A stretch of 64,000 nucleotides of DNA, taken from a virus. Positions within the stretch are counted from its first letter, which is position 1, and each line of letters opens with the position of its first letter. Made by a program: the position numbers and the translations under genes. Where the stretch lies: the IMG/VR virus record IMGVR_UViG_3300034061_001913, positions 1 through 64,000 of that record. One strand, given 5' to 3'. The notes below the pieces were generated by a model. That model saw nothing but the letters and a program-made list of their open reading frames with translations, did not search any database and was not told where the DNA came from. This document shows, one piece after another, positions 9,290 through 64,000 of the stretch.

Positions 9290-9290
9290 A

Positions 9291-39561: not shown

Positions 39562-42500
39562 CTATTCAATCACGTTGTCTTCCATCTCATTTAGTAGTGC
39601 CCTTTGTTCTGAGCCTTTCCAATACAGTTCACTTTGTTTTTGCTCAATCAATCTTCTTAGAGATGTTCTGTATTCAACGTCGTCAGTTTGGCTTGCTTCA
39701 ATACTCAAAGCTTTGATTGCTTTTTTAAGCTGCTTCATGCCCTTTCGTGTTTCTTGTAGATCTTCCTCAGTAGATTGTAAATAGTATTTTGGGTTATAGT
39801 GAGTAAAGGTTCTATATCTATATTCCGGATTAAGGAAGTAGTTCATAGACCCAGCTAGTTTACTTTGTTCTAGGAATAAAGCAACTATATTAGAGTGTCC
39901 TTTTAAAGCAGGGTTAATTGGAACATCTTTACGATTTGATATATAACCATCTTTGTCTCTTTGTACGTATTCGTCAAATAGGTTATAAGTTTCTTGTGTA
40001 GCAAAACTATAACCCTCTCTCAACAAATCATAACTTGCTTGGTAAGGAAGCAGTACATTCTTACTAGTGTAATATTGAACTATGTTTACTTGAGTATTCT
40101 TATCAGTAACTCTTCCGTAGTATATAGAAGCAGGACTAGCAATAGGATGCAAAGTCTCTATTTCATCTATAAGATATACTAAGTTGTAGAGTGCAAAGTA
40201 AGTACCCCAGTTATCTTCGTCATCACCTGAATCTCCTTTAACTAAACCAGACAAAGCATAAGCTATAGACATAAGAGTTACAATTGCTAGTGTGTCATAC
40301 AAAGCACCTCTTAATGCTCTTCTTGATGTACGATCTAAGGTTAACATATAAGCTTGTATACCTTCTTTTCCTTGGGTAAGAGCTTTAAGGAATTTATAAG
40401 ACTGTTCAACAACAGCTCTATAAAAACCTTCATACTCATAACCTCCGCCATAAGAAATTCTTCTACCACCAAAACGTCTAATAGCTTGATAAGCTAACCA
40501 GCTTCTCATGTAACCGGCTAGTCTACCTAGAGCAAATCTTTTGTATTCTCCTTGGTCCATTTTTGCATAAGCTCCATTTACAACTGCTGTTATGCTATGA
40601 AGCTTTTTCATAAAGTAAGACTCTTGAGCTTTTACTTCGGCCTCATCAAACTCAGGCTTTATTCTAATCTCTCCATCTACTATTTCATAGGCATCTTTTA
40701 AGGTTCTTTGCTCACCTGACGTATTCTTGATAAAAGTCTTTTTCAAAAGGGCCTCATAGATACCAATAGTAGTTTCCATTTCAAGGAAGCTTCTTCCAAA
40801 TCTAAGCAAGCTTAATGGGCTATAAGTTTTACCTTCTCTGAAAGGATTGTTAACAATGTTTCTTAGCTTTTCATTCTGTTCTTTTGGGAACACATGGAAG
40901 TAATCAAGCATCTTAACATAATCAGATTCTCTTCCTACACGAGTATCTCTATCGGCCAAGAACAAGTCTTTAATATGTAGTGCGCCTTCTCCCATTCCAG
41001 CAAATATGTCTCCAGGGGATAAATCAAATTCTCCTGCTTGGATTAGTGTATTTTGTAAGTTACTGAAAAAGTTCTTTATTGCAGAAGGTACGTTATAGTT
41101 CAAAGAAAGCTTTCTTCCTGCACTAAGTAATGGGTCAGACAATAAACCTATAAGTCTACCAAACTTACCGTCTCTAGTGTTTATTCCAAAGAGTTGTTTT
41201 TCATAAAGATTCTCAATCATCTTTATGGTGTACTGTCCTTTTTCTTCTTTGCCTATTTTCTTAGAAGACAGAATATCTTCTAGACCGAATAGAGTTGGTG
41301 CGTTCTTGAGAGCTATTTTAAACTTTTCAGCTTCGTGGTTGAACATAGTTAAAGAGGCAAATACGTTTCTGCTCTTTAAGCCTCTGTCCATATTAGAAGA
41401 GTACTTTAAATAAAGTTTTCTGTGTACTCTACTAGAAGTTTTTACACCGGCCAAGGAATCTTCGTCTTCTTCGTTAACACCTAAAACATTATCTCTAACA
41501 TCTAAGTATTTTAGCCTTAATTGTTCTACAGGATTTAAAGTCAAGCCAAAGTTTGTAAACTTATCTTTTCTTACAGAAGGAAGCACTAGTCCTCTTCTTA
41601 AAGAAGCTGGCAAGTCTTGCTGGCTTTTCTGATTCATCTCAGTCAACTCTGCTAAGATTTCTCTTTCTGCAGGGTCAAGATTGTTGTATGATTCATTTAC
41701 ATACTGAGAAGTTGGTCTTAACTGTACTCTTCCTGGAATATATTTATAATCAGGATTAACAAACAAAGGCTTACCTGTTTGAGGATTTAGTACTTGATCG
41801 TTTACCCGGTATGAATTCCAACGGAAAGAAGGAGTAGTTCTATTGATATATCTTTCGTCTACAACTTCATTAATAGAATCCCAAGGAAGTATCTCATTCC
41901 AGAAGTAAAGAGGTTCAAAACTCTTTATTTTTCTTCTAACCATAGGATCAAACTTCTCTACAGGAATGTGGTTAGCTTTAAACCAAGGAGACTTTTGGAA
42001 AGCAATCATTACCTCTCTATCAATAGCTGATGTGTTAAGCAAAGATTCTTTTTCATACAAAACGTTAAGGGCTTCTCTAGCTGCCATTTCTCCTATCTCT
42101 AATGCTGTTAAGTTAGGATACTTCTTTTGAGTAGCTAAGGTTGCTTCTTTTAGATACTTTTCATAGTTTAAAGCAAGGTCCGGATTTAACTGCATAAACT
42201 CAACAACTACTTGAGCCCTAGTTTGTGACAAGGCATTATTATAAGCAGCCGTATAATAATCAGTTGATTGTCTAGTTTGAATGTCATTTAACTGAGCAAA
42301 CAAATCTGCAAGGATAGCTTTGTCTTCTTTAGAAACTAGCTTTGCTTTTTTGAACTCATCCATGTTAGAGTTAAGCTCTTCTTGGAGTTCCTTAATTCTA
42401 GTGCTTATATCTAAAGGAATGTTAGTACCTACATAAATACCGTTTGAATCTCTATAACCTTTAAGTAGGTTAAAGATTTCGTCCCAGATTTCTGAAGCAG

Positions 42501-44490
42501 TTCTAATATTTACATTCTCTTCTTGGAAAACTTCTAAGTAATCTGCTTGAATTTCAGATATAGCATCTAAGATTTCTCTTCTTTGTTTGTACCAATCAGG
42601 GTCAATAGTACGTCTTACGTTTGCTTTAGACCAAGAATCAAGATTTTGTTTGGCTACATAAATAGCTCTTTTTGCGTCAGACAAACTGGCTGCAGTAACT
42701 TCTCCTTTATTATATAAGTCTAGTATCTCTTCGTAAGACTTTTCTGCTTTAGTTACTGCACTTGTATACTCATCTAGTTTGGCTTTCCATTGGTTTAATT
42801 TATCTTCGTCTGGTTCATAGGTAAAGAGTTGAGCAGCTCTTGTAGATTCTTTCCACTTTTTAATGTCCTCAGCTATAGCTAAATCCTCACCTACTTTAGG
42901 TGTACCATCTAAGTAAACAAAAGACTCTAATCTTTCTAGTTGAAAGCGAAGGTCTTCTATCTGTTCCATAACCATATCATTCAAAATGTCTCCACGATCT
43001 CTAGATTCTAGAAGTTTCATTTTGTCTATGATAGCTTTACGGGCTCTCTTTGCTCTCAAGGAAAGAGAACTCATTACTTGATAGTACTCTTCTGTTAATC
43101 CTCTGTCTTCGTTGGCTTCAACAAAACGAGCTAGGTTTTCTTCATCTTCAAAAGTATCCTCACCATTTAGTTTCTTTTGAGCTATAGCGTGTTCTTTTCT
43201 TACTCTTTCGTTTTTGTAACCAATCTCATCCATCTCAGACTGAAGAGCTAAGTCTTGTCTTGTTTCAAGTTCACCATTTTGATTTACAAAAACTACATCT
43301 ACTTCTCTTACGTATGTGTCAAAGAAACTATCCTCGTTTAAACTTGTTAGGAAGTTTCCTCCTTTGCTTCTATAGTGGTCTAGTGCTTTTTTAACAAGCT
43401 TAGACATTTGGTTTTGAAACTTCTGAGAGTTCTGGTCTGCAGTTGTTTGCATATCCCAGATAAAATTACCTGTAGAACCAGTTAATATGTTGGAAGACAA
43501 CTGAGCAGATTCAAGCCAATAAGACCACCAGTTTACATGGTCTTGGTTTTCAAACCCTTCCTCTTCTAAAGCCTTTTGAATATTCTCTTTAGTTGCATAT
43601 TGTTGGGCTCTCTTTTCTAATTTAACTATAGCTTGCTTTAGAGTGTCTATTACTTGCTTTCTATTTTTTGTAGGACCTTGTTCTTGTAATCTTTCAAGCC
43701 TTTGTTTTTCTGCTCTTAGCTTCTCTAGTTCTTTTTGGTTATTGGCAAGAAGCTCTTGAGACTGTTTATGTATAACAGTAGCAAGTTCTGCAGCTACTCT
43801 AGGTATTGAAAACTTTTCATTCTTTTCTTTGATAGCCTTAGCACTTGATTCTATACTAGCCATAACTTCTTTTAAGAAGTTGGTTCCAGTACTATCCATC
43901 ATAGATTTAAAGTAAGGCTTCCAATCATTTATACTGTTCTTTAGTTGGTTTGCTAGTTGAGTAGCAAAGTATGCAGTGCTTGCTCTTTCTTTTTCCGGAA
44001 TACTCTCATCAGCTAAGTGGGCCGATAAAGCTTCTTCCATTGCTTTTAAGTATGTAGAGTTTTCATACAAGTAACTAAGTATGCCTTCTGCTATCTTTTT
44101 AATATCGGTTTCAGAAGCAAGGTCCTCTAGAATTCTAGAAGAACCTATCAAAGATATATTTTTAATCTGTGCCCTCTTTGCCAAGTCTATAATAGCTGGC
44201 CAATTTGTGCTTTCTATTAAACCACGTAGTTTACTATAAAAGTCGTCAGTCTTTTCTAACTCATCTTTAAGTTGGTCTAACGAGTCTAGGTTCCTAGCAA
44301 TAGCTGGGTGGATATAAGACTGTTTTTCTAGTCTTATCTGATTGTATATACTTGTTGCTAGTTCCGGAGTTAAAGGACGATTAGTATACTTTTCATTGTA
44401 TACCTCAAGAATCTTAGAGGTAGCTACCTCATTAAAAAGAAGTACTATTGCTTTAACTTCTGGATCGTTTATATTTAGACAAGTTGCCAT
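39562..44490 (-). CDS. large virion cargo (ejection) protein
   Basis: 1642 aa, helical, C-terminal hydrophobic segment, last gene of the vRNAP cluster; single Cys at residue 4. Confidence 0.75.
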   Translation of the reverse strand: MATCLNINDPEVKAIVLLFNEVATSKILEVYNEKYTNRPLTPELATSIYNQIRLEKQSYIHPAIARNLDSLDQLKDELEKTDDFYSKLRGLIESTNWPAIIDLAKRAQIKNISLIGSSRILEDLASETDIKKIAEGILSYLYENSTYLKAMEEALSAHLADESIPEKERASTAYFATQLANQLKNSINDWKPYFKSMMDSTGTNFLKEVMASIESSAKAIKEKNEKFSIPRVAAELATVIHKQSQELLANNQKELEKLRAEKQRLERLQEQGPTKNRKQVIDTLKQAIVKLEKRAQQYATKENIQKALEEEGFENQDHVNWWSYWLESAQLSSNILTGSTGNFIWDMQTTADQNSQKFQNQMSKLVKKALDHYRSKGGNFLTSLNEDSFFDTYVREVDVVFVNQNGELETRQDLALQSEMDEIGYKNERVRKEHAIAQKKLNGEDTFEDEENLARFVEANEDRGLTEEYYQVMSSLSLRAKRARKAIIDKMKLLESRDRGDILNDMVMEQIEDLRFQLERLESFVYLDGTPKVGEDLAIAEDIKKWKESTRAAQLFTYEPDEDKLNQWKAKLDEYTSAVTKAEKSYEEILDLYNKGEVTAASLSDAKRAIYVAKQNLDSWSKANVRRTIDPDWYKQRREILDAISEIQADYLEVFQEENVNIRTASEIWDEIFNLLKGYRDSNGIYVGTNIPLDISTRIKELQEELNSNMDEFKKAKLVSKEDKAILADLFAQLNDIQTRQSTDYYTAAYNNALSQTRAQVVVEFMQLNPDLALNYEKYLKEATLATQKKYPNLTALEIGEMAAREALNVLYEKESLLNTSAIDREVMIAFQKSPWFKANHIPVEKFDPMVRRKIKSFEPLYFWNEILPWDSINEVVDERYINRTTPSFRWNSYRVNDQVLNPQTGKPLFVNPDYKYIPGRVQLRPTSQYVNESYNNLDPAEREILAELTEMNQKSQQDLPASLRRGLVLPSVRKDKFTNFGLTLNPVEQLRLKYLDVRDNVLGVNEEDEDSLAGVKTSSRVHRKLYLKYSSNMDRGLKSRNVFASLTMFNHEAEKFKIALKNAPTLFGLEDILSSKKIGKEEKGQYTIKMIENLYEKQLFGINTRDGKFGRLIGLLSDPLLSAGRKLSLNYNVPSAIKNFFSNLQNTLIQAGEFDLSPGDIFAGMGEGALHIKDLFLADRDTRVGRESDYVKMLDYFHVFPKEQNEKLRNIVNNPFREGKTYSPLSLLRFGRSFLEMETTIGIYEALLKKTFIKNTSGEQRTLKDAYEIVDGEIRIKPEFDEAEVKAQESYFMKKLHSITAVVNGAYAKMDQGEYKRFALGRLAGYMRSWLAYQAIRRFGGRRISYGGGYEYEGFYRAVVEQSYKFLKALTQGKEGIQAYMLTLDRTSRRALRGALYDTLAIVTLMSIAYALSGLVKGDSGDDEDNWGTYFALYNLVYLIDEIETLHPIASPASIYYGRVTDKNTQVNIVQYYTSKNVLLPYQASYDLLREGYSFATQETYNLFDEYVQRDKDGYISNRKDVPINPALKGHSNIVALFLEQSKLAGSMNYFLNPEYRYRTFTHYNPKYYLQSTEEDLQETRKGMKQLKKAIKALSIEASQTDDVEYRTSLRRLIEQKQSELYWKGSEQRALLNEMEDNVIE

Positions 44491-44516
44491 GTATTTTTTT
44501 GTGTTTATTTTTCGGT

Positions 44517-44786
44517 TTACAATTTACAGCTAAGGAAGTATTCTTTTGCATCTTCCTCTGGCATATTTGGGTTTTCTTCAATAAAGTCTTCTAGCTGGTC
44601 TTCTATGGAAGGTTCCATAGTTGTTTCTGTGGCGGTAGGTTGAGATTTAAGAAACTGTTTAAATCCTTCTATATCTTCTTTATTACCTAAAAAATTACCA
44701 GCAAACTCAAAAAAATGAGATTTAAAATACTCATTAAATTCTGGTTGAGAGTATTTTTTATTATTATATGTTATTGTGCAAGCCAT
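44517..44786 (-). CDS. 89 aa protein, probable displaced C-terminus of the 1146 aa protein
   Basis: [13 protein letters not shown] duplicates [13 protein letters not shown] of the upstream protein; Cys at both ends. Confidence 0.7.
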
Positions 44787-45418
44787 ATTTGATTGTTCTT
44801 TATTTTGTAAATTGTTGTAATTGAAACATTAAATTTATTAGCTAATTCTTTTACTGATTTATTAGAACTTCTAATAAAAGAAACACTATCCCAATTCAAT
44901 TTAGCAGAATTATTATTCTGCCCTTTTTTAGATTCTGATAATTCTTTAGCTCTCTTTTGAGCAGCTAATTTAAGATTTAATTTATGTTCTTCTGAAAATA
45001 TTTTTCCCTTACCAGATTCAGACATTTTGTTTTTAGTTTCTTCTGAAACAGTAAATCCATAACCTCTTACAGCTTTACCTTTTCTTTTTTCTGACATTTT
45101 TTGTTTAGTTTCATCTGATGCTTTTAAACCGTAATTACTTTCTGCAATCAATCTAATGTTAAATTTATTGCTGTACTGTTTTAAAAACCATTGTTCTAAT
45201 TTAATACAATATTCAGAAGGACATGTTGCTAATATTTTAAAATCTACATTTTCAATTCCATATTTATTTACAAAGTTTTGTAAGGGTTTATTTACATGAA
45301 AATTAGACCTTAATTTATCAAAATGTGTTTTCTTTCTTAAACAAAAATTGGTTGCAGAGCCTATATAAACCCTATTATCTATTTTAGAAAATATTCCGTA
45401 AACTCCTGAATTTAACAT
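44771..45418 (-). CDS. GIY-YIG homing endonuclease with NUMOD3-like repeats
   Basis: GVYGI...VYIGS...R...H...HVN..LQ...E...N; [23 protein letters not shown]. Confidence 0.9.
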
Positions 45419-48400
45419 ACTCTATCTATTTTACCAGTTTCTATTAATCTGTTTTCTATTTCCATAGAAGACTTGTTTATAATAAATTGTCTGAATTGTT
45501 CATAAGTTCCATATTTAGCAAATTCGCTATTTTCAAAAGCCATGTAATTTTTGAAACCTTGAATATCAGTTTTAGATAAAAGTATATGTATTTGTTCTGG
45601 TTCAAATACTATAATTTGTTCTTCGTTAATTCCAAAAGTTTCTTTTTCATCCACATCTTTTGCAATTACCGCATCATGAACCTTTATCCATTTTTGTACA
45701 TTCTGCTTATTCCAATTATTTATCCATTCTGGGTTTTCCTTAGTATTAATCTGTTCTTCCGCTACTATTTGTCCTATTTCCTTCCAATGAGTTTCTTCTT
45801 TTATTATTCTTGGATTTTTAATATTAAGCAAAATAGGATAAATAGTTTCTTTATATTTATCTTTTACACTTTTTTGATATTCTTTATTTGATGCAATTTC
45901 TTCATTTTCATCGTATTTTTCTGAAATTTCAGTGTCTATTCTGTCTTGTGTTCTAAAAGAAGAGTATCTTTCAGCAGTTTCTTTATTTCCAAACCAATAT
46001 CCTCTAATATTATTTGGAGCTTTAAAATTTTCAATATTAGGATTACTTGTACCATGATAAACAATATCTTTTACTTGACTATCAGGAAAGATAGTATCTA
46101 AATACTGAGAGTATGCTTGTAAAGCTTGTTGTTTTTGCTCTGGGGTTATTGAAGAAAAGACTTCGTTATTACCATCAAAGACTCCTACAGTTCCTTGTAT
46201 GGTATCAGTTAATGGTTGTACTTTGTCTAGATTCTTTTGTATCTCTTCGTTGCTTTCAAAAGGTTTTACTCCTTTAGCAGTTGATAGTGTGATGTGAGGG
46301 AATCTGTTTTTAGACAAAGGATTGTCTACAAGTAAAACATCTACTTTATATGTGGTAAGTCTTCCTACTATCTTAATCTCTTTGTTTTGTCCTATAGGAA
46401 GTCCGGTTAGATCACTTGGTTTAAATTCAATAGTAGAATGATGTGAGTACAGATTAGGATGAACTTGTTTGTATTTTGAAACTACATCATTTGTATCAAA
46501 GAACACAGCACTATATACAACGTTAGTTGCTTTAGGTTTAAACCCTAATGCTTCGTACACTTGATTAGCCAACTCAAAGTCAGAGTCAAATAGCTCTTCT
46601 AGTCCTGGTTTGATGATTACAGATTCTTTTTTTGTAGGAAGCTGGTAATACATTAATCGACTCTTTAAGTCAACAGGTGCTTCTATAGTGTCGCTAAACG
46701 GTTTCCACTTTTGGTAATCGTAGGAATCTTTAGGTCTGCCCATAGTAGATTGCTTTTCATAAAAAGACTCCGAGAAGTGATTGAGGGTTAATCCATACTC
46801 TTTCTCTGCTATAACAGTATACTCGCTAGAATCTCTAGGAGACAAGAAGAAGTCAAACAAGTACATCTTGGCAAGTTCTTCTTCGGTGTAGTTAGAAAGT
46901 CTTTTATTAAAAGAACCAGTATAGCTTTTAAAACGGTCTTTGAGGCTTTGGTCTTCTGACCATATTGCATTTATTGTAACGTAGTTAACACCAGCTTTGT
47001 TATTGTTGTAAGCATAAAGAAACTCGGTGTCTGGGTACTGTTGTTTAAGTTCTCTTAAAACAGGAATTTTTTGTGCTAGTTTTTCAGCGTTTATTCTTAC
47101 GTAGCCAAGGTTGCCTCTGATTTCAGAAATGTCTTTTGTTAACTCAACAAAATCTTCTATATCTAAAGAAATGCCGTGAATGTTTTGAGGAACTACATTA
47201 TCTATATCATGTAAAGCATCTATATTAGGTCTGTATGTTTCTCCTTGGTAACGGTAAGACAAGCTTCCAGTAATGATCATGCCGTGGTCTGAAAACCATT
47301 TCATGAATTTTAACGCTTTTCCACCATCTTTTTTATTCTGTTGTTTTATAGTTTCAGAATAAGAGAGCAGATTGTAGTTAGCAGTACTTCTTTGAATCCT
47401 GTCTAGCTTTTTGTAGTTGTTATTAAGAATGTCTCTAGCAATAGAATCTGCTGCAGTGTTCAAAGAAACATAAGGAACAGTGTCTAACAAGCTAAACACA
47501 TAGTCAATAAGCTCTTTTACTTTGGCCCAGAAGGTTTTTGATTTATCCATACCTTCATAGTTTCTTACTAGAGCCAAACCAATAACTTGTCCTATAGCTT
47601 CTTTTTTAATCCTAAAGTAATCAGGATTGCCTAGAGGTGTAACATACAAATTCTTATAGTCATTAACGACTCTTTCATATCCTTCCCAAGATTCTATGTT
47701 ATCAAATAGATATGTAATCAAAGGGTTCTCTGATTTTTTACCTGGGATGGCTCCTAGTAGTTCAACAAAGACGTGACCGTATTCTTCTGGCACAGTAAGA
47801 AGGTTTCGATTTTTTGCATAATAAACCGCTTTATTCAAAACGTCAAATACACCAGTGCTGTCTACACCAAACCTATCTTTTAGGCTTTCTATTTCTTCGT
47901 TTTTAATGTGGAACCTTTCAAAGTATTTGATAAGCAAGTTTTCCAACTCTTTGTTAATAGGTTCTAGAATTGCTTTATAATACTGTTCGTTAGAGTTTTT
48001 TTCAAACTGTTTTATGTAAAAGTTTAAAATTTCAGAAACCTTTAAGGTTCTAAGCTGTGGGTTATTATTTACCAACTCTAAGAACTCTTGTCTTAGTTTA
48101 GTATCAACCCCTGCTTTCTTTAAGACCTCGTTTAGATTTTTTTCGGAACCTATACCTAGTACAGATTTGTTTATTGACCGAAGTTTAGTGTTTAATTCAT
48201 CAATACTATTAAAGAGATTTCTAATTTGAAAGAATTTCATTTGGCCGGTTTCATCCATAATAGGCCCAATCTTTTGTTCAGTACCTCTAACTTCAGAACT
48301 TTCTACTAACTCTTGTGCTGGAGGAAACAGATCTAAAGCAATATCAGCAATCTCTTGACCTACCATACTCAAAGCAGTTGTTGCTTCACTAGGGGAAGCT

Positions 48401-48852
48401 GTTAACTGTTGGGACAATTCAAGTAAACCTTCCTCTACAGTAGAGGGGTCTTTTAATGCAACAGCTCCTATAGCATTGATGTTCTGTGCTAACTTAACTA
48501 CTTTATCTAGCTTTTCTTGTTTAATACTCTCTAGCTTTACCACTTCTTTTCTTCTTTTCTCTAGAGCATCAACCACAGAGTTGTTGTAAACCCAACGAGT
48601 TGTTGTGTATGTTTTACTAAAACCATATACATCAGGCCTTAAACCCTTTACCTCTGAAGTTTGAGTAGTAAGAACTTCTCCTTCTATAGATACTCCAAGC
48701 TGTTCTTTTAGCTTACGAGAAAACTCTTGGTTGAATAAACCAAAGTATTTTCTATCTAAGATAATGTTGCCATCGACTATAGGCTTTTGTCTATCATTTA
48801 CATAACTTTTTATATTGTCTGATATTACAGTATGTATGTTACATTCTTTCAT
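45412..48852 (-). CDS. polyvalent virion cargo protein (zincin-like, nucleotidyltransferase, 2H phosphoesterase, ART-like)
   Basis: EEYGH; ITGS...HDID...GRPKD..D; HHST/HITL; VYHGT...GYWF...LNIKNP...VFEPEQI. Confidence 0.75.
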
Positions 48853-48871
48853 TCTTTTGTTGCTTTATTAC

Positions 48872-51800
48872 TTAGGAAGGTTTTTTGCCTTTATTACAAG
48901 AGATTTTATCTTTATCTTCAATGTTGTTTAGGCTTTGACCTAAACTTGCGTCACTGAGTTTTAATTTACCTCGACTAGGTTGCTTACGTTCATCAGCTTT
49001 TTTTTCTTTGCCAGGTAAAGTAAGTTTTTGTTTAGGGCTAGCTGGTTGTTGACCAAGTTCTGATTCTGGAATAAACCAAACATCATCAAAGCTTTGTCCA
49101 TAATCACCTTGGAAGTTTTCATCATACTCTTCACCAAAGTCTTCAAAAAACTCAAATTCATCTGTAGACACTTCAGATTGTAGAACATTGTTAACTTGGT
49201 CTAAACCAAAGTTTTTAATATACAGAGAAGAAACTTTTTTACGTTCTAACTGATCGTATTCGTTCTCTAGAAAACTAATAATGTACTCTTGAAACTTCTT
49301 GTCGTTATCTGTATTTTTTTCAGCATTAATGTATGGCAAGAAATTTTGAATTGCATTGTTAAAATAAGGAGCACTTATACTAGCTGAGATAATACTTTGG
49401 AGAGTGTTACGTTGAAGTTTGAATCCTTGGTGAGCCATAACTCCCATAGCCAACTCAAAGAAGAACTTGCGAACATCTTGAGTTATCTCTTCAGTATCTC
49501 CTTGGAAGTTATTTATAAGACCAGTTAGTTCGTTGTTAAACGCATCTACCGCATCGTTAGAACCAGTTTGGATAAGAACAGGATAGTAGTAAGTTTTAAC
49601 TCTTTTGTTCTTAGGATTAGTTATGTCTACTTTTCTAAAGAATAGATATTTAGCAAAACTGATATTTTCCATTATCCAAGTATAGCTTTCCTCTTTAGAT
49701 TCAGTCATTTTAATCCAACGATCCATCAAAGAGTTTGGATTATTCTTTTGTAGTAGGCTAATTGGCAATGCTTGTTCAACAGACAAGTCTCCTACTCCTC
49801 CATAATTCCAGAACAAAGATAATATAAAATCGTCGTTAAAGTTCCTAATATAACTTTCAGCTTTCTTACCTCTAACTAGGTATCTGTATTTAGTCGCTAG
49901 TAAAGCTTCCATGTGAGAAGCAACCACTTCTTTATACTTTGGATTACCGGTAATAGCTAACACGTTTTCTAATACGGTATTACCAAAGTTAGAAACGTTA
50001 AAAGGAGAAACTACAGATTCTTTTACAATGTAATCTAGAGCCTTTTGGTTAAATATCTCATTAACAGGTTGATTTTCTATTGTCCCTTCTTTGATAAACT
50101 TATACTGGTTGTACATTGCTTGTCCAGATTGGAATGTGGTTGTATTCAAATCTAGATTTTGGTTCAAGGTAACTACTGCAGAGTTTTGTTTTTCTACAAC
50201 ATAGTATTGAGCCAAAGTAACAAGTTGTTTTAATAAGAAGTCTTTATCCTCTGCTGTAAGTTCTCTCTTGGCAAGAGTTGTGCTAAATTTAGTTTCAGCT
50301 ACGTTCTTAATTGACGGAGGCATTCTTGTGAAGGCAGTTTCAAAGTTAAGGTCAGAAAGTATTTTTGGCCCATGATTAGTAAGTATTTTAGATATAGTTG
50401 CTTTTAAGTCAAGAACCGGTCTACCTTTTTCTGACTTCTTCATCACCTTTAACTTTGAGTCAACTCTTGCAATAGTCTTCTCTAAAAAGTCTACAAACAT
50501 AGCATCTTTGCTACTTAATTTTCCTGACACAGCTTGTTTGAATTTACCTTGTTTAGATTCTCTAAAGAACTCATTCATAACAGGCTGAAGCAAAAGAACT
50601 ACAGCAGATTCCATACTAGAACCATTTAATGTAACCATTTGGTGATACAAAGCAGTTCTAACTTTATCCGCAAAAATGCGGTTAATCCAGTCTTCTTTCT
50701 CCGCATCCACACTACCATTAATGAACTGACTACCAACATCGCTAATCAAAACATTATCTACTGTGTATCTATTACCCAAAGTAATAAAGTTATTCTCATC
50801 TCTTCTGGCCGGTAAGAAATAAAGGTTATAGAATGGGTCCACAAATCGTAATCCGCTTTGCTGGAATAGTTTGTGCATCGCATTAATCTTAGCAGAGATA
50901 CCCAAAGGACTCTTAGCTCCAACTACTTCTCTTTGAATCCTGGTTGAAGTCATTGGCATAAATATCTCGGCTCCTCTAATCTTTTTAGAAATGTCTTCTA
51001 CGTTAGTGTACCTTTTGCTAGAACCTTTTTGTTCTTCTACTCTATTATAAAAGTCTACAATAAAAGAGTGCAAGTAGTCATTGTTGTTAGGTGCAGTCAA
51101 AGACTTAAACATAATAGGCTGAGACATCATGTTAGAAACCGCTTTAACAAAGTTATTATGCGAAGTGGCTAACATTCCTTCCGGAACCTTTTTAAGATCT
51201 TTAATAAAGCCTACTAACTCTTTGTAAGAAGCCTGAAGCTTTTCAAACTTAGCAAAGAATAATGTATCTAGGTCGCCTTCTTTTCTAGCTTCTGCTGCTG
51301 CTTTCTTAGCTTCAATTATGTCTTGTTTAAATATTGCTATTCTTTCTTTTACTTCTTTGCCTTTTTGTGTAGTAGGTTTAAACTTTAAGTTATATAGCTT
51401 GTGAAGAATTGCTTTGTCTTTTGCATAGAGTGTGTTATAAAACTTGTATGAGTCAAAGTATGAGTTGTTACGCATCTCTACCTCTAACGCATCCATCTGT
51501 TCTACTACAACAGATATAAGTTCCTGGTATCCTTCTAGTGCTTTAAGGTTTTTGTTGTACTCCTCTACAGAGTAAGGTATATCAAACAACTGTCCATCTT
51601 CATTATAAGAAGGTTCATACATGAACAGTTTGTCAATATCAAAGTCAGATCCAGACTTAGTAACAATGTCTGGGTTAACTATAATAACTGGACCTGCAGA
51701 AGTAGGCAAGAATTCTCTAACTCTAAACATCTCAATAGAGTTGTGACCCTGTACAGGGATACGCACACCTACAATTGTGATTTTTTCTTTGTTAGCTTCT

Positions 51801-54800
51801 ACCCACGCATCATCCATTAACGCTTCATTCAAACGTTTGAGGTCAGCAATCTTTGCTCCTTTATAGTTTAGGTTAAGTAAGGCTGCATGTTTATTAGGAT
51901 TAAAAGCAATCTTAACATCTGCAGGTTGAACTTTACCGTTTTCTATTCTGTAGTTTCTAAGGTTGTTAACTCCAAACTCTTCTAGTTGCTCAGGGGTTGG
52001 GTTTTTAAATCGGCCACCCTTTTGGCTATAACCAGTAGAAGCTGTTTGGATATAAGGCTCTCCGTTTAATTTTGGTCTAATGAGTTTTTTGTTAAGAGCA
52101 GAAACAAAGATTCTTTCAGCTACGTTTCTGTAACTCAAACTATCCAAAGACAACGGATCTTCTTTCTCAGATTCTGTCTGCAGGAAAGAGAAGAAGTCTT
52201 CTCGTATATCTTGTTTCTCTGCTTCTTTCTGTAGCCATTTGTAGAATTTATTTTTGTCAACACCAACTACTTTTCCTTTGTCTAGAGTGATGCCCATTGC
52301 TTTGGCCATATCTAGTTGTTCTAGTTCTACTGTGTGACGAATAGAATCAACAAATGCTTTTCTAGCTTCTTCTACTATTGGAGCAAACTCTTCAGGATAA
52401 TCTTCAGAAAATTCTCCATTCTCAAAGAAGTCACCAAACAACAGCTTAACAAGCTGAGTAGACAAAGTAGCTTCTTCTTTGAATTTAGGTGCTATGTACT
52501 GCTGCTCTCTTAATCCTTCTATAGAGTATGTACCTACGATGTTAGGGCTAATCTTGTTAACCTTCATGTCTTTGTCGTAAATTTCATACTCCGGATAAGG
52601 GAATGCCATCTTTTGTCCAGAACCAAAGGTGATAATATCTGTTCCAGATTCAAACATGCTTTCCATTACATCCGCTAAGTCAGTGCTTCCTAAACCTGCT
52701 CCGATAACAACAGAAGGCAACAAGGTATGCAAAGAGAACTTACCTAGTAGAGTGTCTTCTGGGTTATTTAGTTCTGCTCCATACAAACCAGTTTTTAAAG
52801 AAGGAATCAAACCTATACCAACACTATTAATAAGGTCTTCTAGGCGAGCTTGTTTTCCTTCTAATGTTTCTCCTAAATCTTCAAAACTTGTTATTCTTCC
52901 TGAAGCTTTTTTCTTTCCTCTGCTTTCTTTAATCTCTTTGTAGAGTCTGTAAATCTCAACCTCTTTCTTATAGGCCTCTTCTAGAGTAGGAGACCATCTG
53001 TCAATAGATTTTAGATATACTCTAACAAAGTCCAAGTTACCCCAAGCTTGTGCATCTGCTTCTTTCTTTTGGTTAGCATAATCCTGGTATCTAGCTTTAA
53101 CTAAGTCTTTTAGTTTGTTAGATTTTGTGTTTGATAATTCTTTATACTCTTTAGAGTCTATGCCTTTAGTAGCTTCTACTTCTTTGAGAATTTGTATCTC
53201 AAAGTATTTCATAACAGACTCTTTGTTGTTTTGGTGAGGACCAAGATCTTTTGCAACAACAACTTTGATTTCTGAATTGTAAGCTCTTTCTGCTTGAGTT
53301 GATATTTGTTCAAGCTCTCTAGTTATTCCTAAAGTTTGTAGCTTATTAAAGAACTCTTGACTAACTAGAGGCTGTCTTCCTGGAGAAGAGGTAAAGCCCA
53401 AACGTTTAAACACTTCTTTGTAGCCTTTACCTTTAGTCTGATAGTTTCTTGGGTTGCCCACAAATAAGTGTACAATTTCTGTCTGGTGGACAAAGTAGTT
53501 TGTTAGGTAGAACTTTAGTTTGTCTTTAATCCATTGAGCATTTGTAATGTTTTCATTAGGCATCAACTTAGCAAAGGCTCTAACCATCTCTTTGTCTTGA
53601 TTTTCTGGAGAGAGTGTGTTAAAGTTTTTAAGCAAAGAATACTTCAAAGCTTCGTAGTGTTTATCTATAGCATTGTTAAAGTAATCAGCTATTTCCTCTC
53701 TTACGGCTTTTCCGTAATCTCTAAACCCTTTGCCTTCAATTGCATTTTGCTTTAGTTGGCTCTCAAGCTCAGGAGACAAGATACCATCAAAGATTACAAA
53801 CTTTCTGTCTTCTTCTCTTCTTGCGTTTTTAATTTGATCCATCTCATACCGCAAGTAGCCAATCATAGCACTCATAAATTCTGGTGCATATTCTTCTGTA
53901 AAAGACTCTTCCGGAAAGAGAGTAATGTTTTTCTTGTTTCCTTTAAACTGAATTGAGTAAGCAGAAGACTTGGCTCCAAATCTTAGGTTCTCAACTAATC
54001 GTATTTTAAGGAAAGAAAAGAAGTCATAGGCCAATTTATCTTCTGGGGATAGGTCAACTGCTTTACTACCTCTAGTAGTATCTGAGTTCCCTTGAATAGA
54101 CATACCTTGCCAACCTAATAGAGACAGTTCTTCTTTCTCGTTCTCTACACCTCTGTTACGTTTTTTACCGTTCTCTCCAAATAACTTCTTCATAAATACA
54201 GAAGAAGTGAAGAAACCGTTAGTAACCATAGAACGAGTCTGTTCATTCTCTTGCAAGTCTTCTACGGTCTTTGCAGCATTGATACGGTTAATCTTATAAG
54301 ACAACTCATTCCATTGATGCATACCCCACTGAAGTTCTCCTTCAATGTTAATGTAAGATTGGTCTCCATAGAATTGTTTTAGGTCATCGTAAAGAGAAAG
54401 AATGTTATTGGCTGTAGATTTTATATTTTGTATTTTAAACTTATCTTCTTTCTGTACTAGGGAAGTGTTTATTCCCATGCTTTGAAACACAGAAAGTACT
54501 GCTTTGCTATAGTTAGTTGTTAGTCTACCTAAAGGACGAAGTATTCCCTCAACCTTATTTGCTGAATATAAAGTCTCTTGTGCTATAATTCTTGCAAAGG
54601 TTTGAATAGCCAACTCAGACAAATCAGCTTTTCTGCTTTTTAGTTTAGCAGTTTCAGCATAAGGAGTAAAGTCCATGTTAAACACATCGTTAAAGAAAGT
54701 GTATATAGTTTTACCGTCTACACTTAATACATCTGGATAAGAGTCAAAGAACTTGGTATAGTCTTGCACAATAGCTTTTGTGTTCAATATAATCTCTCCA

Positions 54801-56944
54801 GTTTTTGGATCTTCTATCCTATACTTTCTGTTAGCGTCTACTGCAAACTGGTTGTCTAGTTGTTCTTTTACTTTAGCTCCTCCAGTAGTATTAAGCTCAA
54901 ACAAGTCCATTTCATAAACGGTAACAGGGCCACCTTTACTTGCAACTGTTTTAGCTTTAACTCTTAGTCCCCAAGGAACAATTCTTGGAAGAGACATAGA
55001 CTGTTTAAAGGCTTGGATAAGTTGTAGGTCTTGGTCAGTAGTTGCTTTCTCAGTACTCTCTGGTAACTGTTTTAATAAGTAACTAAACTGAGGAAACTCT
55101 TTTGACAACTCTTTTACCTTTTCTATCATTTCCTCATAGGAAACTTTTCCTGACAAGGCATTCAATAGAATGTTGTAGTTAGTGTTGTATTCTCCAGAAA
55201 GAGGAAGCATAAACTCGCTACCTCTAGCTAAAGCTGGAGTTCCATCTACAGACATATCAGGGTCTATTTTAGGCAGACCTTTAATGATAGAAATAATAAT
55301 AGGAGATGCTACCTCTTTAGGGTTTATATCTGCTGCGGTTTTGTTTTCAAAATCTTTTGAAGAACGGCCTCTCTCGTTTTCATCTTCAGGAGTCATTGCA
55401 GACTCTACCATGTTTTCATAGTCGGCCAGTTCTTTATTTAGAAACTTACCATGCCATGATTTAATGTCATTCCACATATTGATGACATTAAAAAGATTCA
55501 CTAGCTCGTTTCCAACACTATCAGGATCTTCTAGGTATAAAGCTTTTCTTTCCTCAAACAAAGCAGTTAGAGAATCTTTCATTCTATCATACACTTGTTT
55601 TTTGTACTCTCCTCGATTAAGAGACAAGAGGTCAGAAACTTTTAAGCCTAAATCATTTAAAGCTTGGTAGAACATATAGTTCAAAGAACTTACTAGTTCT
55701 GCACCTTCAAGAGAGTCAAACTCTAACTTATCTATAACTGCTACTCTATAGTTGTTGTTGCCTAGGTTAACTAAACGAACTACAGTATCATCTAAAAGTT
55801 TATATACACCGTCTTTGTAGTTTTGGTCTAACTGTATTTCTCGAAGACCATTCTTAATTGCCAGATTAATACTGTCATCTAGTCTAAGTATCATATCTGT
55901 ATAGAACTCTTCTGAGAAAGATTTAGACAAATTTAGACTTGCCCATTCATTATGTTCGAAGTTTTGTTGGGCGTTTATTTTACCGGTTTTAAGAACACTA
56001 AACCATTCTTCAACTATACCCTTAGACTCTTGTGCTGTTTTTCCTTTAAAGATGTAGTTAAATAGATCAACAATCTTTTTGAATAGCTTTTCAAGAAACG
56101 TCCTTTGTGGAGTATACTCGTCTTTAGCATTCAACATATACTCTCTAAACTCTTCTGCTAAAACTTCTTCTGCTTGCTTTCTAGTTAGTTGACGATATGG
56201 AATCTCAACCCCATTAAAGCTATAAGTTCCTACTCTGTTTCGAACCTCTGCATAGATAACGTTTCTTTGTGCTTGAGTTAAATAAGTCTGAGTAAAGTTG
56301 TGCCAGGCTTCATGATACAAATCAGTATAGTCGGAACCATTATATAGAATAGTAGCATTTGCAGTCCACTGAGCTAAAGAATTGTTATTAGCAATTCTTG
56401 TTGCTACAACAAGAGGAGTAGCTTTAGATAACTCATTAGTTCTGAACCACATTAAACCCCTAGCTTGTTGTGCTGCTGTGGGTTTCATACGTTTACGATA
56501 CTCTCTTTCTTCTTTTATGTTTCTTTTGTCTGAAGCGTTTAAATCGACTTTGATAGTCTGAAGACTTTCCATGTCCTTAAAAGCACTCTCCAAAAGATTC
56601 TCTACAGTCTTTTTGTTGTTTTGTTCCAAGAAAGACTGCATAACAGAAAACTGACTAGGCTTAGGTAGTTTGTTTTGTTTGGCTTCAGAAAACACTTTTT
56701 CAGAATAAGCCTTATAGTTGTCACCTAAAGCAACTGCTTTTAGCTGTAAAGCTTTAGCTCTACTTCCAGTATTATCATAAAGGTCTTCAAAGAAAAAATC
56801 TCTTTCCCCGGTAGGAGTTTTATCTAAGGAGTGTCCGTTATTGACATCCCAAAAATAATATGCAAGAGATTCACCTACTACATTTTCTAACTCAGAGAAT
56901 TCTTTTTTGATTTGAGGATCACTGAGTAAAGGACATATCGACAT
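48872..56944 (-). CDS. virion-packaged two-barrel RNA polymerase (crAss-like) with N-terminal zincin domain
   Basis: RIP.QG.NS...GSDFDIDK catalytic motif; DAQ; VDAEK; LYHEAWH. Confidence 0.92.
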   Translation of the reverse strand: MSICPLLSDPQIKKEFSELENVVGESLAYYFWDVNNGHSLDKTPTGERDFFFEDLYDNTGSRAKALQLKAVALGDNYKAYSEKVFSEAKQNKLPKPSQFSVMQSFLEQNNKKTVENLLESAFKDMESLQTIKVDLNASDKRNIKEEREYRKRMKPTAAQQARGLMWFRTNELSKATPLVVATRIANNNSLAQWTANATILYNGSDYTDLYHEAWHNFTQTYLTQAQRNVIYAEVRNRVGTYSFNGVEIPYRQLTRKQAEEVLAEEFREYMLNAKDEYTPQRTFLEKLFKKIVDLFNYIFKGKTAQESKGIVEEWFSVLKTGKINAQQNFEHNEWASLNLSKSFSEEFYTDMILRLDDSINLAIKNGLREIQLDQNYKDGVYKLLDDTVVRLVNLGNNNYRVAVIDKLEFDSLEGAELVSSLNYMFYQALNDLGLKVSDLLSLNRGEYKKQVYDRMKDSLTALFEERKALYLEDPDSVGNELVNLFNVINMWNDIKSWHGKFLNKELADYENMVESAMTPEDENERGRSSKDFENKTAADINPKEVASPIIISIIKGLPKIDPDMSVDGTPALARGSEFMLPLSGEYNTNYNILLNALSGKVSYEEMIEKVKELSKEFPQFSYLLKQLPESTEKATTDQDLQLIQAFKQSMSLPRIVPWGLRVKAKTVASKGGPVTVYEMDLFELNTTGGAKVKEQLDNQFAVDANRKYRIEDPKTGEIILNTKAIVQDYTKFFDSYPDVLSVDGKTIYTFFNDVFNMDFTPYAETAKLKSRKADLSELAIQTFARIIAQETLYSANKVEGILRPLGRLTTNYSKAVLSVFQSMGINTSLVQKEDKFKIQNIKSTANNILSLYDDLKQFYGDQSYINIEGELQWGMHQWNELSYKINRINAAKTVEDLQENEQTRSMVTNGFFTSSVFMKKLFGENGKKRNRGVENEKEELSLLGWQGMSIQGNSDTTRGSKAVDLSPEDKLAYDFFSFLKIRLVENLRFGAKSSAYSIQFKGNKKNITLFPEESFTEEYAPEFMSAMIGYLRYEMDQIKNARREEDRKFVIFDGILSPELESQLKQNAIEGKGFRDYGKAVREEIADYFNNAIDKHYEALKYSLLKNFNTLSPENQDKEMVRAFAKLMPNENITNAQWIKDKLKFYLTNYFVHQTEIVHLFVGNPRNYQTKGKGYKEVFKRLGFTSSPGRQPLVSQEFFNKLQTLGITRELEQISTQAERAYNSEIKVVVAKDLGPHQNNKESVMKYFEIQILKEVEATKGIDSKEYKELSNTKSNKLKDLVKARYQDYANQKKEADAQAWGNLDFVRVYLKSIDRWSPTLEEAYKKEVEIYRLYKEIKESRGKKKASGRITSFEDLGETLEGKQARLEDLINSVGIGLIPSLKTGLYGAELNNPEDTLLGKFSLHTLLPSVVIGAGLGSTDLADVMESMFESGTDIITFGSGQKMAFPYPEYEIYDKDMKVNKISPNIVGTYSIEGLREQQYIAPKFKEEATLSTQLVKLLFGDFFENGEFSEDYPEEFAPIVEEARKAFVDSIRHTVELEQLDMAKAMGITLDKGKVVGVDKNKFYKWLQKEAEKQDIREDFFSFLQTESEKEDPLSLDSLSYRNVAERIFVSALNKKLIRPKLNGEPYIQTASTGYSQKGGRFKNPTPEQLEEFGVNNLRNYRIENGKVQPADVKIAFNPNKHAALLNLNYKGAKIADLKRLNEALMDDAWVEANKEKITIVGVRIPVQGHNSIEMFRVREFLPTSAGPVIIVNPDIVTKSGSDFDIDKLFMYEPSYNEDGQLFDIPYSVEEYNKNLKALEGYQELISVVVEQMDALEVEMRNNSYFDSYKFYNTLYAKDKAILHKLYNLKFKPTTQKGKEVKERIAIFKQDIIEAKKAAAEARKEGDLDTLFFAKFEKLQASYKELVGFIKDLKKVPEGMLATSHNNFVKAVSNMMSQPIMFKSLTAPNNNDYLHSFIVDFYNRVEEQKGSSKRYTNVEDISKKIRGAEIFMPMTSTRIQREVVGAKSPLGISAKINAMHKLFQQSGLRFVDPFYNLYFLPARRDENNFITLGNRYTVDNVLISDVGSQFINGSVDAEKEDWINRIFADKVRTALYHQMVTLNGSSMESAVVLLLQPVMNEFFRESKQGKFKQAVSGKLSSKDAMFVDFLEKTIARVDSKLKVMKKSEKGRPVLDLKATISKILTNHGPKILSDLNFETAFTRMPPSIKNVAETKFSTTLAKRELTAEDKDFLLKQLVTLAQYYVVEKQNSAVVTLNQNLDLNTTTFQSGQAMYNQYKFIKEGTIENQPVNEIFNQKALDYIVKESVVSPFNVSNFGNTVLENVLAITGNPKYKEVVASHMEALLATKYRYLVRGKKAESYIRNFNDDFILSLFWNYGGVGDLSVEQALPISLLQKNNPNSLMDRWIKMTESKEESYTWIMENISFAKYLFFRKVDITNPKNKRVKTYYYPVLIQTGSNDAVDAFNNELTGLINNFQGDTEEITQDVRKFFFELAMGVMAHQGFKLQRNTLQSIISASISAPYFNNAIQNFLPYINAEKNTDNDKKFQEYIISFLENEYDQLERKKVSSLYIKNFGLDQVNNVLQSEVSTDEFEFFEDFGEEYDENFQGDYGQSFDDVWFIPESELGQQPASPKQKLTLPGKEKKADERKQPSRGKLKLSDASLGQSLNNIEDKDKISCNKGKKPS

Positions 56945-56970
56945 ATTTATTAGTTATTTACTTTGTAAAG

Positions 56971-59900
56971 TTATATTGTATTTGACTTTTTTCGTATCCT
57001 GCTTTGATTATTTTTTGCGTTTTTCTCACAATTGTTTTTCTGCTTTTCAGCAGCTTCAATTTGCTGTACGGTAAGACTAGCAGCAAGTGGACTATAGTTT
57101 TCTTTTTCCTCTTGACTTAGTTCAGGTTCGGCTTCTTGTGTAGGTGCAACTTCTAAAGCATTTAATTCTGTAAACAGCGCATTCACAAAGTCTTTTATAC
57201 CTTTAGATTTAAGTTGACTTGGTGCTCTATTGAACGAGTCTTTACCTTCATAAAGAGTGCTTATCATATCATATAAAGCAGATATAACACTTTCCTTAGC
57301 CTGCTCAAACGCTTGAGGAGTATTGCCAAACTGAGAAGCTAACAATTTTATTCCTGCTTCTACACTTGTATTTTTAAAAATACTCTCTTTATTGTTTTCT
57401 AGATATTCTTTTAATCCAAGATTAAACAGTACTTCTTTCTTATTATAAGTTTTTACTTGATCTGCTTTATTTAAGAAAGAAGGGAAGCTAGTAGTCACTT
57501 CAACTTTAGTATCTGTTTCTTTAGTTATTGTACCTAGTTCGTATTTTAATCCTACTAATGAACCAGAAGTAGAAGCAGCTTTTTGTTCAACAGGTTCACT
57601 TTTTTTACCAGCTAACTCTTGTTCAATCAAATAGCTAATTCCTGCAAAAAACCTAATATCACTTCCTGGGTCTGTAAGATACTTACTTAATCCTGTAAAA
57701 GAACCGCCATCAGGATAGATAGTTGTTGTTTCTCCATTTTCAAAGGTAACATCAAATGTGTGTTGAGGTTTTGCATCTTTTAGTCCTTCTCTTGTAACAA
57801 TTTGTGTTTCTTCAACATTGATCTTTATTTCTTTTATTCCTCCAAGTGTATCAATTACTTTTTTTGCAAACTCTTTTCTTTTGCTTTCTTCAATTCTTGT
57901 AGGATTAAAGTCTGTTACAATAGTTTCAGCAGGTTTAGCTTCTACAGGAACTATGTCATAAACATATAGCTTTCCTTTTCCATTAACCCAGTCTTTAGTT
58001 TGTTTGTACATAAAATCATTTTCAGACTTTACACCCTCAGACTTAATTATTGCATCTTTACCACCAGCTTCTTCAATTGTAAGGGCCCCTCTATTTGTTA
58101 CCTTAAAATCTTGACCGTCAAAATTTACAATAGCAGATTGACCTACAGGTATATTAATTTGTTTAGCTTGAGCAGCACTTCTTACAGTAGTTGTTTTTAC
58201 TCCCGCTTTTATTTTTTTAATGTTGTCTGGTTGCATTTGTATTTCAACCTTACTTTCTGTAGCGGGGGCAACAGTTTCTAGAGCAGCTAGTTCTGCATCA
58301 TACTTAGCATTAATTTCTTCTGTAGAAGGTAGTAATTCTTTCCAATTAGGTAATAAATCATTCAGCTCTTCTATTGAGTAAGCACCTCTTCTTATTAATG
58401 TGTCTAATGTTTGGTAATTAGCCCCTTCTCTATCATCATTATTATATGCTTTTTCAACTATCTCTCTTGTTACATATCTTTGAATGTCTCCTCTAACTTT
58501 AGCTCTATTATCTCTAAGTATTGGTATAGAATATACTTCATTTTTAACTGTAGAACCATTATTGTTTTTTAATTCCTCTTGTCTTCTTTCTTCAATAGCA
58601 GCTTTAGCATCTGTAGAAACAGGAGCAGGAGCTTCTTCTGCAGGTTGAAGAGTGACTACTTGTTTTGTGCGAAGTTTTGGTTTTGCGTTTTCTTGCAAAG
58701 AAGGAATAACAAGAGTTTTATCTACCGGTATTGGAAGTGCAGGTTGTCCATTTTCTGTAAGAATGGTTGCTGAAGTAACATTAAAGGTTTCTTCATCCTT
58801 AAAGGACAACTTTATGTACATTATATTCAAACCAGGAGTAATACCATACTGTCTAGCAAACATTACACCATAGGAGTTCTGTTGGCTTATGTGTTCTGAT
58901 TTAGGATTCTCTGCCATACTAACATAACCATTGGCTTCACTGCTATAACCTAGTATATTTTCTTTAACCTTCTTATACCACTTAGATGTTTTAAAGTCAA
59001 CTATATCCACTTCTCCGGTTTCTTTGTTGATGAGAAGCATATCTATTGCACCAGCAATTTTAGCATCTTCATCCCAAAGAATAATTTCATCAGTGTTTAT
59101 AATGTAGTTGTCTTTTAACGCATTGTAAATAACAGTAGCTTGGTTTGTTATAAACTTAAAAGCAGCTGCAGATAATAAATCTGGTTTAGTTGGAGTCCTA
59201 CCTGCAAAAACATCTCTAAGAATTGTGTCTATAGCTCTACCAACTGTAGTTGCTCTCTTTGTAGCAAAAGACTCTTTGTCTCCTCCAAAGTCTATCTCAG
59301 AAGAAACTCTTTCGTAACGGTTTCCGTCAATTAAATAATAAGAAACTTCTTTACCGTTTTCGTCTACCTCTTCAACTAGTTCTGCTCTTTTTTTGTTTTT
59401 AGCTATCTTGTCTAGCAACTCTTGGTTTCCTGGAGCTTGTCTCTTACTATCAAGAATAGCAAGAGCTTCGTCGGTTTGGTCCTCAGTCAATTGCTCTTCT
59501 GCATCTTTTAGACTTAGTTTACCTGCAGGACCTTTCTTTTTAGCTGGTGTTTGTTGAGGTCCTGTTTTAGCTTTTGGTTGAGGAGCAGCTTTTGTCTTAG
59601 AAATAGAAACCCCCATATCAAATATGATTCTTTGGTTTCTTCTTACACCCGGAGTGTTTCCTGTCATGTAAACTTTGTTGGTTGATTTAACAAAGTCTAC
59701 ATAAGTTTGGTCTTTAACCTTTACTACTTCACCTTCTTGCATAGAGAATCTAGGGACCATAGAGTTTACTTCTCCTTTAGATACGTTATAATACAACTCT
59801 TTAAATAACTTGGTGAGTTGTTCTTGGTTAAGTTGTGAGCCACTAACTCCAGGAATAAAAGGAACAAGTTCTTGAGTTTCTTGGTCAAAAGCAAAAACTA

Positions 59901-64000: not shown

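Follow-up and report, generated by a model that had tools for sequence, protein, structure and literature searches.

Paired terminal cysteines suggest end-to-end linkage of the injected cargo proteins of a crAss-like phage

Introduction

Crassviruses are the most abundant phages of the human gut. It is an open question how these viruses pass protein in megadalton amounts, among it a polymerase with a length above 2,000 residues, down a narrow tail while keeping the correct order and quantity (PMC10172136). In the podoviruses N4 (gp50, a virion RNA polymerase, with gp51 and gp52) and T7 (gp14, gp15, and gp16), large proteins are likewise stored in the capsid and expelled before the DNA. For cyanophage A4 (Anabaena phage A-4L), cryo-electron microscopy of the pre-ejectosome revealed a disulfide that joins Cys1715, on a C-terminal helix in gp27, to Cys5 of gp26 (PNAS 2025, PMC12002296). 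This bond lies in a pentameric ring, with the subunits alternating around the portal axis, and stabilizes a mortise-and-tenon core (PMC12002296). Here we analyze a stretch of 64,000 nucleotides (hereafter the window), comprising the first 64 kb of the 74,216-bp viral contig IMGVR_UViG_3300034061_001913, which contains the virion RNA-polymerase cargo block of a divergent crAss-like phage. Cysteines in the five cargo proteins of this block are restricted to the ends that face each other across the gene junctions.

Results

Cargo cysteines are confined to the facing protein ends

The late genes occupy the minus strand of the contig, and the cargo genes among them are tightly packed, with gaps of 19–26 nt or overlaps. 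The first chain protein, of 2637 residues (here called the giant), is encoded at positions 56971–64884, past the window end at 64000, and was completed from the full contig. It is followed by a protein of 2690 residues (here called vRNAP, for virion RNA polymerase; 48872–56944), a third protein of 1146 residues (45412–48852), an 89-residue protein that we refer to as a mini-link (44517–44786) and a last protein of 1642 residues (39562–44490), all on the minus strand. On the basis of homology and gene order, the five proteins are most likely packaged in the particle and injected; the phi14:2 and crAss001 homologues are virion proteins by mass spectrometry (crAss001: PMC10172136; phi14:2: record annotation).

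Among the 8,204 residues of the five proteins, a scripted recount found 8 Cys, all at the four inner junctions, and no internal Cys. The sole Cys of the giant is Cys2619 (codon 57028–57030), within the motif NNCEK and followed by 18 residues. The vRNAP carries Cys4 (56933–56935) and Cys2683 (48896–48898), the 1146-residue protein Cys4 (48841–48843) and the final residue Cys1146 (45415–45417), and the mini-link Cys3 (44778–44780) and Cys87 (44526–44528). The 1642-residue protein has Cys4 only (44479–44481), and its C-terminus is free of Cys. These counts agree exactly with the original prediction, made from the DNA alone, which had listed eight terminal Cys, had matched each C-terminal Cys to an N-terminal Cys in the next gene product and had noted that the last protein lacks the unpaired one. 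It had also called for a check that the true N-terminus of the first protein, which lies outside the window, lacks Cys: this reads MPNKLENF, and no Cys precedes residue 2619.

The other open reading frames (ORFs) of the contig contain 206 Cys in 14,296 residues (1.44%), from which approximately 118 Cys would be expected in the cargo; the deficit has a Poisson probability of approximately 5e-40. Random placement of 8 Cys with all of them in the junction-facing end zones has a probability of approximately 4e-16, a value that was calculated post hoc.

We then compared these proteins with ejection proteins of other phages. N4 gp50 (3500 residues), gp51 and gp52 contain no Cys in 4,294 residues, T7 gp15 and gp16 contain none, and T7 gp14 has Cys2 only (L064:729-1319). 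As the N4 and T7 proteins are poor in Cys but have no junction pairs, Cys avoidance is ordinary for podophage ejection proteins, as the original prediction had anticipated, and it is the pairing that is special. A recount of the A-4L genome showed that Cys1715 is the sole Cys of gp27 (1717 residues) and Cys5 the sole Cys of gp26 (1114 residues, starting MSKHC), which is encoded by the adjacent gene. All four junctions of the window fit this A4-type signature, with an upstream Cys near the C-terminal end, a Cys at or before approximately position 7 of the next protein, and otherwise Cys-free proteins.

The junction pairs are conserved across Crassvirales

A survey of Cys positions in cargo proteins across Crassvirales, which had been proposed together with the prediction, showed the terminal pairs to be conserved. 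In a tally collated by hand over 26 chain segments, covering phi14:2, crAss001, and about 25 metagenomic lineages, a full Cys pair is present at 41 of 42 junctions, and the last C-terminus is without Cys in all 23 complete cases. Three further pairs, beyond the tally, are found in locus L065. Internal Cys are rare in lineages that use the standard reading of TAG (15 in 90,176 residues, 0.017%). Gut lineages that read TAG as Gln tolerate 3–12 internal Cys and still keep the junction pair, in the form of a tail xCKGx, 2–3 residues from the end, followed by a head with ICPNLS. In the loci L004-L018, L022, L024, L026, and L030, the cargo genes are open only when TAG is read as Gln, with 9–74 in-frame TAG codons per protein.

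In phi14:2, the sole Cys of g67 (1797 residues) is its final residue, g66 (2180 residues) has Cys3 and Cys2179 only, and g65 (1421 residues) has Cys3 only. In crAss001, the sole Cys of gp47 (2341 residues) lies 2 residues from the end, gp50 (2412 residues) has three Cys, namely Cys5, an internal one and one that lies 8 residues from the end, and gp49 (1349 residues) has Cys5 only. Although gp47 is encoded on the strand opposite to gp50 and gp49, the Cys ends match, indicating that the rule acts at the protein level rather than through the DNA of the gene boundary or coupled translation. In the nearest relatives of the window phage, G001 and G003, the chain has three links, and approximately 6,700 residues contain 4 Cys.

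Sets of homologues that were collected blind to Cys follow the same pattern. Among homologues of the 1146-residue protein, 22 of 33 have exactly two Cys, at position 3–7 and 0–2 residues from the C-terminal end, and all 11 homologues of the 1642-residue protein (26–98% identical over residues 1–400) have a single Cys at position 3–4. Metagenome loci retrieved with Cys-free core patterns of the 1146-residue family also obey the rule; in one of these, a protein of at least 3548 residues with a final Cys is followed by a protein of 744 residues (Cys5, Cys743) and one of 2038 residues (Cys6 only). The exact Cys position varies from 3 to 7 residues from the start and from 0 to 20 residues from the end, and the flanking residues differ. 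A code matching types of tail to types of head was not evident by eye among the collected pairs.

The domain order of the cargo proteins is permuted between lineages. A conserved head with ICPNLS and a zincin-like motif starts the polymerase in the window, G001, and G003, and starts the last cargo protein in cr118_1 (L001:19998-25001) and in many gut lineages. The Cys rule tracks gene ends and not domains.

Pairs disappear where genes are fused or rejoined at the RNA level

Natural rearrangements of the cargo genes provide further comparisons. In L042 and L044, a core like that of the 1146-residue protein and the last protein form a single fusion product (2263 and 2453 residues), which has Cys3 only; where the genes are fused, the junction pair is gone. 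In L003, the polymerase gene is broken within the catalytic DFDID motif (VGAD on one side, FDIDK on the other), and no Cys is found on either side of the break. An insert of approximately 1.1 kb (6020–7134) separates the two ORFs (1499–6019 and 7135–9513), and contains a sub-threshold match to a group I intron (RF00028, 28 bits) and a LAGLIDADG_2 gene (79 bits). A break repaired at the RNA level thus appears to carry no pair, while an unrepaired break, as described below, appears to receive its pair from a selfish element.

A homing-endonuclease cassette carries a pair of cysteine-tipped ends

A free-standing homing endonuclease of 215 residues (44771–45418, minus strand) overlaps the stop of the 1146-residue gene and the start of the mini-link gene. 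It matches a homing endonuclease family in PHROGs (E = 6e-26) and the Pfam families GIY-YIG (32 bits) and NUMOD3 (30.5 bits), both above their cut-offs. The protein has 3 internal Cys and is not cargo. The prediction had left this gene out. The prediction also had the ends of the 1146-residue protein and the mini-link as a pair, which is indeed present, and had overlooked that an endonuclease has recently made the split.

The endonuclease gene is the center of a mobile cassette of approximately 960 bp (~44664–45623, minus strand), delimited by nucleotide identity to L059, L060, and L061. The cassette spans the last ~70 codons of the 1146-residue gene, which end with GKIDRVC-stop, then the GIY-YIG gene, and finally the initial ~41 codons of the mini-link gene (MAC...DIEG). 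Its identity to the three loci is 75–98%, whereas the flanks outside are 20–65% identical and unalignable. The same unit of tail, endonuclease and head is present in L059-61 and L065, and thus in at least four IMG/VR contigs.

An unsplit allele without the cassette, P0001 (1124 residues, compared as protein), ends exactly like the mini-link. It aligns to residues 1–1104 of the 1146-residue protein at 86% identity and then to residues 17–89 of the mini-link at 75%, and lies on a 19.7-kb contig together with a 1642-residue protein from the cluster of the last protein of the window. The mini-link is thus composed of a cassette-borne head (residues 1 to ~41) and the ancestral C-terminal module of the split gene (~37–89). 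The junction is a recent split, and the cassette brought in the Cys on each side of it, one for the new C-terminus and one for the new N-terminus. With a Cys-tipped tail and head provided by the cassette itself, the chain would stay connected although neither intron nor intein is involved.

Ten other standalone proteins of 48–141 residues share the ~45-residue head and have unrelated tails; 8 of them end with a Cys 0–5 residues from the end. Other GIY-YIG genes in L059, L060, and L065 are likewise flanked by a Cys at a C-terminal end and a head starting MxC.

Two further features were observed. A second kind of payload-free mini-link (92 residues, Cys4 and Cys91) is encoded on the minus strand of L065 (ORF 7356–7634 of the reverse complement), between a polymerase-size protein of more than 2451 residues and another GIY-YIG gene. 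Within the mini-link gene of the window, a 27-nt direct repeat (44641–44667 and 44716–44742, 81% identical) encodes GFKQFLKSQ and EFNEYFKSH, suggesting that the cassette head holds an internal echo of the target motif.

Identity of the cargo proteins

The giant is 25% identical to the 2131-residue first protein of G003, of which the sole Cys is 18 residues from the end. The vRNAP gave tblastn matches to many crAss-like phages, including phi14:2 g066. When its catalytic region was cut out, residues 1386–1821 matched PDB entry 6VR4 (phmmer, E = 1e-9); a search of the PDB with all 2690 residues gave nothing at E ≤ 0.01. The catalytic DFDID motif is at residue 1767, and a zincin-like HEAWH, recognized as a motif alone with no profile match, at residue 211. 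The N-terminal 80 residues share 47% identity with the head that starts the last cargo protein in cr118_1. The vRNAP is, by these similarities, a predicted crAss-type virion RNA polymerase.

The 1146-residue protein has a strongly conserved core (approximately residues 205–740) with a G-S...D-x-D pattern, which is 45–65% identical in proteins of 655–1964 residues from many metagenomes. The Pfam family ART-PolyVal (PF18760) matches residues 930–1088 with 30.9 bits, just below the gathering cut-off of 31.2, and two homologues bear PF18760 as a precomputed label. The protein looks like an injected polyvalent effector, and invariant G-S...H-D-I-D residues in its core suggest a nucleotidyltransferase. 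As it is absent from the nearest relatives G001-G004, it would represent added cargo.

The 1642-residue protein shows 30% identity to the protein that ends the chain in the nearest relatives. An AlphaFold2 model of residues 1–450 is all-alpha, with a mean confidence score (pLDDT, predicted local distance difference test) of 72, and places Cys4 in an N-terminal coil ahead of a helix at residues 10–34. A Foldseek search of the PDB with this model gave no match at E ≤ 0.001, and none to A4 gp26. The model of the mini-link shows a beta-hairpin and a helix in the head, a tail that is helical but loose, and no compact fold, and the C-terminal tails of the cargo proteins are basic and of low complexity. 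As modeled, the free N-terminal coil, the loose mini-link and the basic tails fit flexible tethers. Co-folding of residues 1–300 of the 1642-residue protein with the mini-link, performed for this one pair only and with alignments built for this analysis, gave a score of 0.01, where the mark is 0.32, and is taken neither for nor against binding.

Family profiles of the 1642- and 1146-residue proteins gave only noise against the PDB. None of the five cargo proteins matched PHROGs, and the borderline ART-PolyVal match was the only one in Pfam. Scans of IMG/VR with the 1146- and 1642-residue proteins, and searches of the phage collection with the 1146-residue protein (tblastn) and the cassette (blastn), found no close relatives of the window.

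Genes upstream of the chain

Upstream of the chain, the contig encodes three large late proteins without Cys (621, 961, and 973 residues; contig positions 64917–69674 and 70956–73877). Those of 621 and 961 residues match Cys-free proteins of G003, and all three are probably further ejected or internal proteins outside the chain. Just upstream of the 973-residue protein, a very basic 107-residue ORF (73871–74194, minus strand) has Cys4, Cys76, and a final-residue Cys (RRRWKC); the equivalent place in G003 (L041:11002-11451) holds a 149-residue protein with the same ending. Between the Cys-free structural genes lies a 214-residue ORF (70315–70959) with 19 Cys and an HNH-like motif (HHIKP..CGKCH), which is probably another homing endonuclease.

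Discussion

We propose, with a probability of roughly 0.6, that disulfides between the C-terminal Cys of each cargo protein and the N-terminal Cys of the next join the cargo into one reducible thread within the particle. Inside the particle, each C-terminal Cys would bond the Cys at position 3–4 of the following protein, in the order giant, vRNAP, 1146-residue effector, 89-residue link and 1642-residue protein, and each five-protein set would form a single redox-cleavable thread of approximately 8,200 residues. The linkage would keep the partners at a 1:1 ratio and together in the internal core, and would impose a fixed order on their exit through the tail. In the host, the reducing cytoplasm would then cleave the links and release the polymerase. 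Internal Cys may have been purged so that wrong bonds cannot form.

The positions of the Cys and their conservation, their loss on fusion or splicing, their gain at the endonuclease split, and the A4 disulfide with the same signature are direct observations. From these we infer the bond, the linear chain, the ordered ejection and the reductive release in crassviruses. The original prediction had read the ends as coupling modules that string the cargo into one chain for packaging or ejection: the head-to-tail pairing has passed every comparative test applied here, and the covalent bond, the ordered chain and the role in packaging or ejection stay at the level of a proposal.

Several points weigh against the thread. 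Part of the IMG/VR set was retrieved with a pattern that itself contains the N-terminal Cys, although the upstream C-terminal Cys and the remaining sets are free of this bias. In a few members (P0011, P0013, P0017, and the 472-residue protein of L061) the "C-terminal" Cys lies 66–229 residues from the end. Oxidation would have to take place although the cytoplasm in which particles are assembled is reducing and gut crassviruses live without oxygen. A4 gp26 and gp27 gave no BLASTP match to the cargo proteins at E < 0.1 and, with neither sequence nor fold similarity found, the precedent is one of functional analogy and not of family membership. The two key papers, the preprint on the phi14:2 RNA polymerase and the crAss001 atlas (PMC10172136), do not mention cargo cysteines.

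The same Cys could instead clamp a symmetric internal core onto the portal, with no thread pulled through the tail and with proteins that separate before or during ejection. This is unlikely in our view, yet it is a serious alternative, as the A4 bond sits in exactly such a setting, the pentameric ring of a mortise-and-tenon core (PMC12002296), and T7 and N4 eject their core proteins without such links. A ring accounts for one pair, but less well for a strictly linear series of as many as five or six links, for outer ends that are free in all 23 cases and for the tolerance of payload-free mini-links of 89–92 residues; crAss001 showed no ordered core density for these proteins (PMC10172136). 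We regard it as improbable that the ends dock non-covalently and that the Cys help to bind a shared metal ion such as Zn, or act at the interface in some other local way. This option had been listed in the original prediction, and the conserved heads (C-x-N-L-x-D-P), which suggest a recognition surface, and a His beside the Cys in some tails (NHCKGK, MKHCKGE) are in line with it. However, one Cys per side gives two ligands only, there are no additional conserved Cys or His, the flanks are highly variable, and in A4 this very signature corresponds to an ordinary disulfide (PMC12002296).

Independent functions of the N- and C-terminal Cys, in bonds to capsid, portal or scaffold, in homodimers or in modification, would make the pairing a by-product. 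Disulfides do occur in crAss001 virions, where they stabilize tail and vertex proteins (PMC10172136), and the basic ORF at 73871–74194 of the same contig has Cys4 and a final-residue Cys without a Cys-bearing neighbor. We nevertheless consider this improbable as well, as it fails to predict that first proteins lack only the N-terminal Cys and last proteins only the C-terminal one, and that both Cys are lost together at fusions and intron-joined breaks and gained together at splits. Finally, the tight packing of the genes (gaps of 19–26 nt, or overlaps) could point to an effect of start or stop context or translational coupling at gene boundaries, and the general avoidance of Cys in ejection proteins (none in the 4,294 N4 residues or in T7 gp15 and gp16) could leave terminal Cys as a remnant. 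This is scarcely credible: the matching ends of crAss001 gp47 and gp50 on opposite strands and the conservation of the pairs already contradict it, Cys positions (3–7 from the start, 0–20 from the end) and flanks vary, N4 and T7 avoid Cys without having pairs, and the placement in the window alone has a probability of approximately 4e-16. Native chemical ligation or intein-like joining was rejected, as the Cys is never residue 1 after removal of Met, and lipidation was rejected in that there is neither a signal peptide nor a lipobox.

A conserved tether that can be read from sequence would provide a concrete and testable hypothesis for cargo delivery. It predicts the order and stoichiometry of the cargo, would give a redox switch for release of the polymerase, would explain the extreme scarcity of Cys, and would allow the injected proteins of uncultured phages to be recognized from sequence alone. 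With a connector-carrying cassette, selfish elements would have a third means of hiding the damage they cause, in addition to introns and inteins, and the cassette could find use as a small natural tool to link proteins by their ends.

The A4 disulfide and endonuclease-derived tails were already known; the proposed multi-link chain that includes the vRNAP, the order-wide rule and the portable Cys-tipped connectors are new, and full-text literature searches found no paper describing terminal Cys pairing in crassviruses. Tentatively, and with less confidence than for the thread itself, we suggest a wider picture in which the proteins injected by crassviruses and by at least one unrelated cyanophage may be delivered as one redox-cleavable "polyprotein" stitched together by disulfides. 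The connectors would be short, portable and Cys-tipped. Endonuclease cassettes that bring a matched pair could cut a cargo gene anywhere without breaking the thread, and new effectors, such as the 1146-residue protein with its nucleotidyltransferase- and ART-like features, could join by a Cys at each end.

Among known systems, the cargo blocks of the cultured crassviruses phi14:2 (g067-g066-g065, with gp66 as PDB 6VR4) and crAss001 (gp47-gp50-gp49) come near to this one and share with the window a homologous vRNAP with a DFDxD motif, giant flanking proteins and the terminal-only Cys pattern. Their chains have three links against five in the window, where the polyvalent effector and the 89-residue mini-link are inserted between the polymerase and the last protein. 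In addition, the zincin domain heads the last protein in these phages, whereas it is fused to the polymerase N-terminus in the window. The A4 system resembles the window in its adjacent genes for large capsid-internal ejection proteins with the same terminal sole-Cys signature. It differs in that a single link is present, as a structural detail of the pentameric ring, in that no RNA polymerase is involved and in that the phage belongs to a different family, the Saffermanviridae; the A4 study did not generalize the bond into a rule or a multi-link chain (PMC12002296).

For the split gene, the nearest parallel is the nrdA-a/mobE/nrdA-b arrangement of Aeromonas phage Aeh1 (PMC3045599). There too, a free-standing endonuclease splits a coding region, and the halves bear new C- and N-terminal tails that arrived with the element, with no intron or intein; these tails are essential for reassembly of NrdA (Crona et al., NAR 2011, PMC3045599). 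The endonuclease is of the HNH type in Aeh1 and of the GIY-YIG type in the window. The tails in the window are Cys-tipped, the cassette recurs in several phages and genes, and the re-joining that we propose would be covalent.

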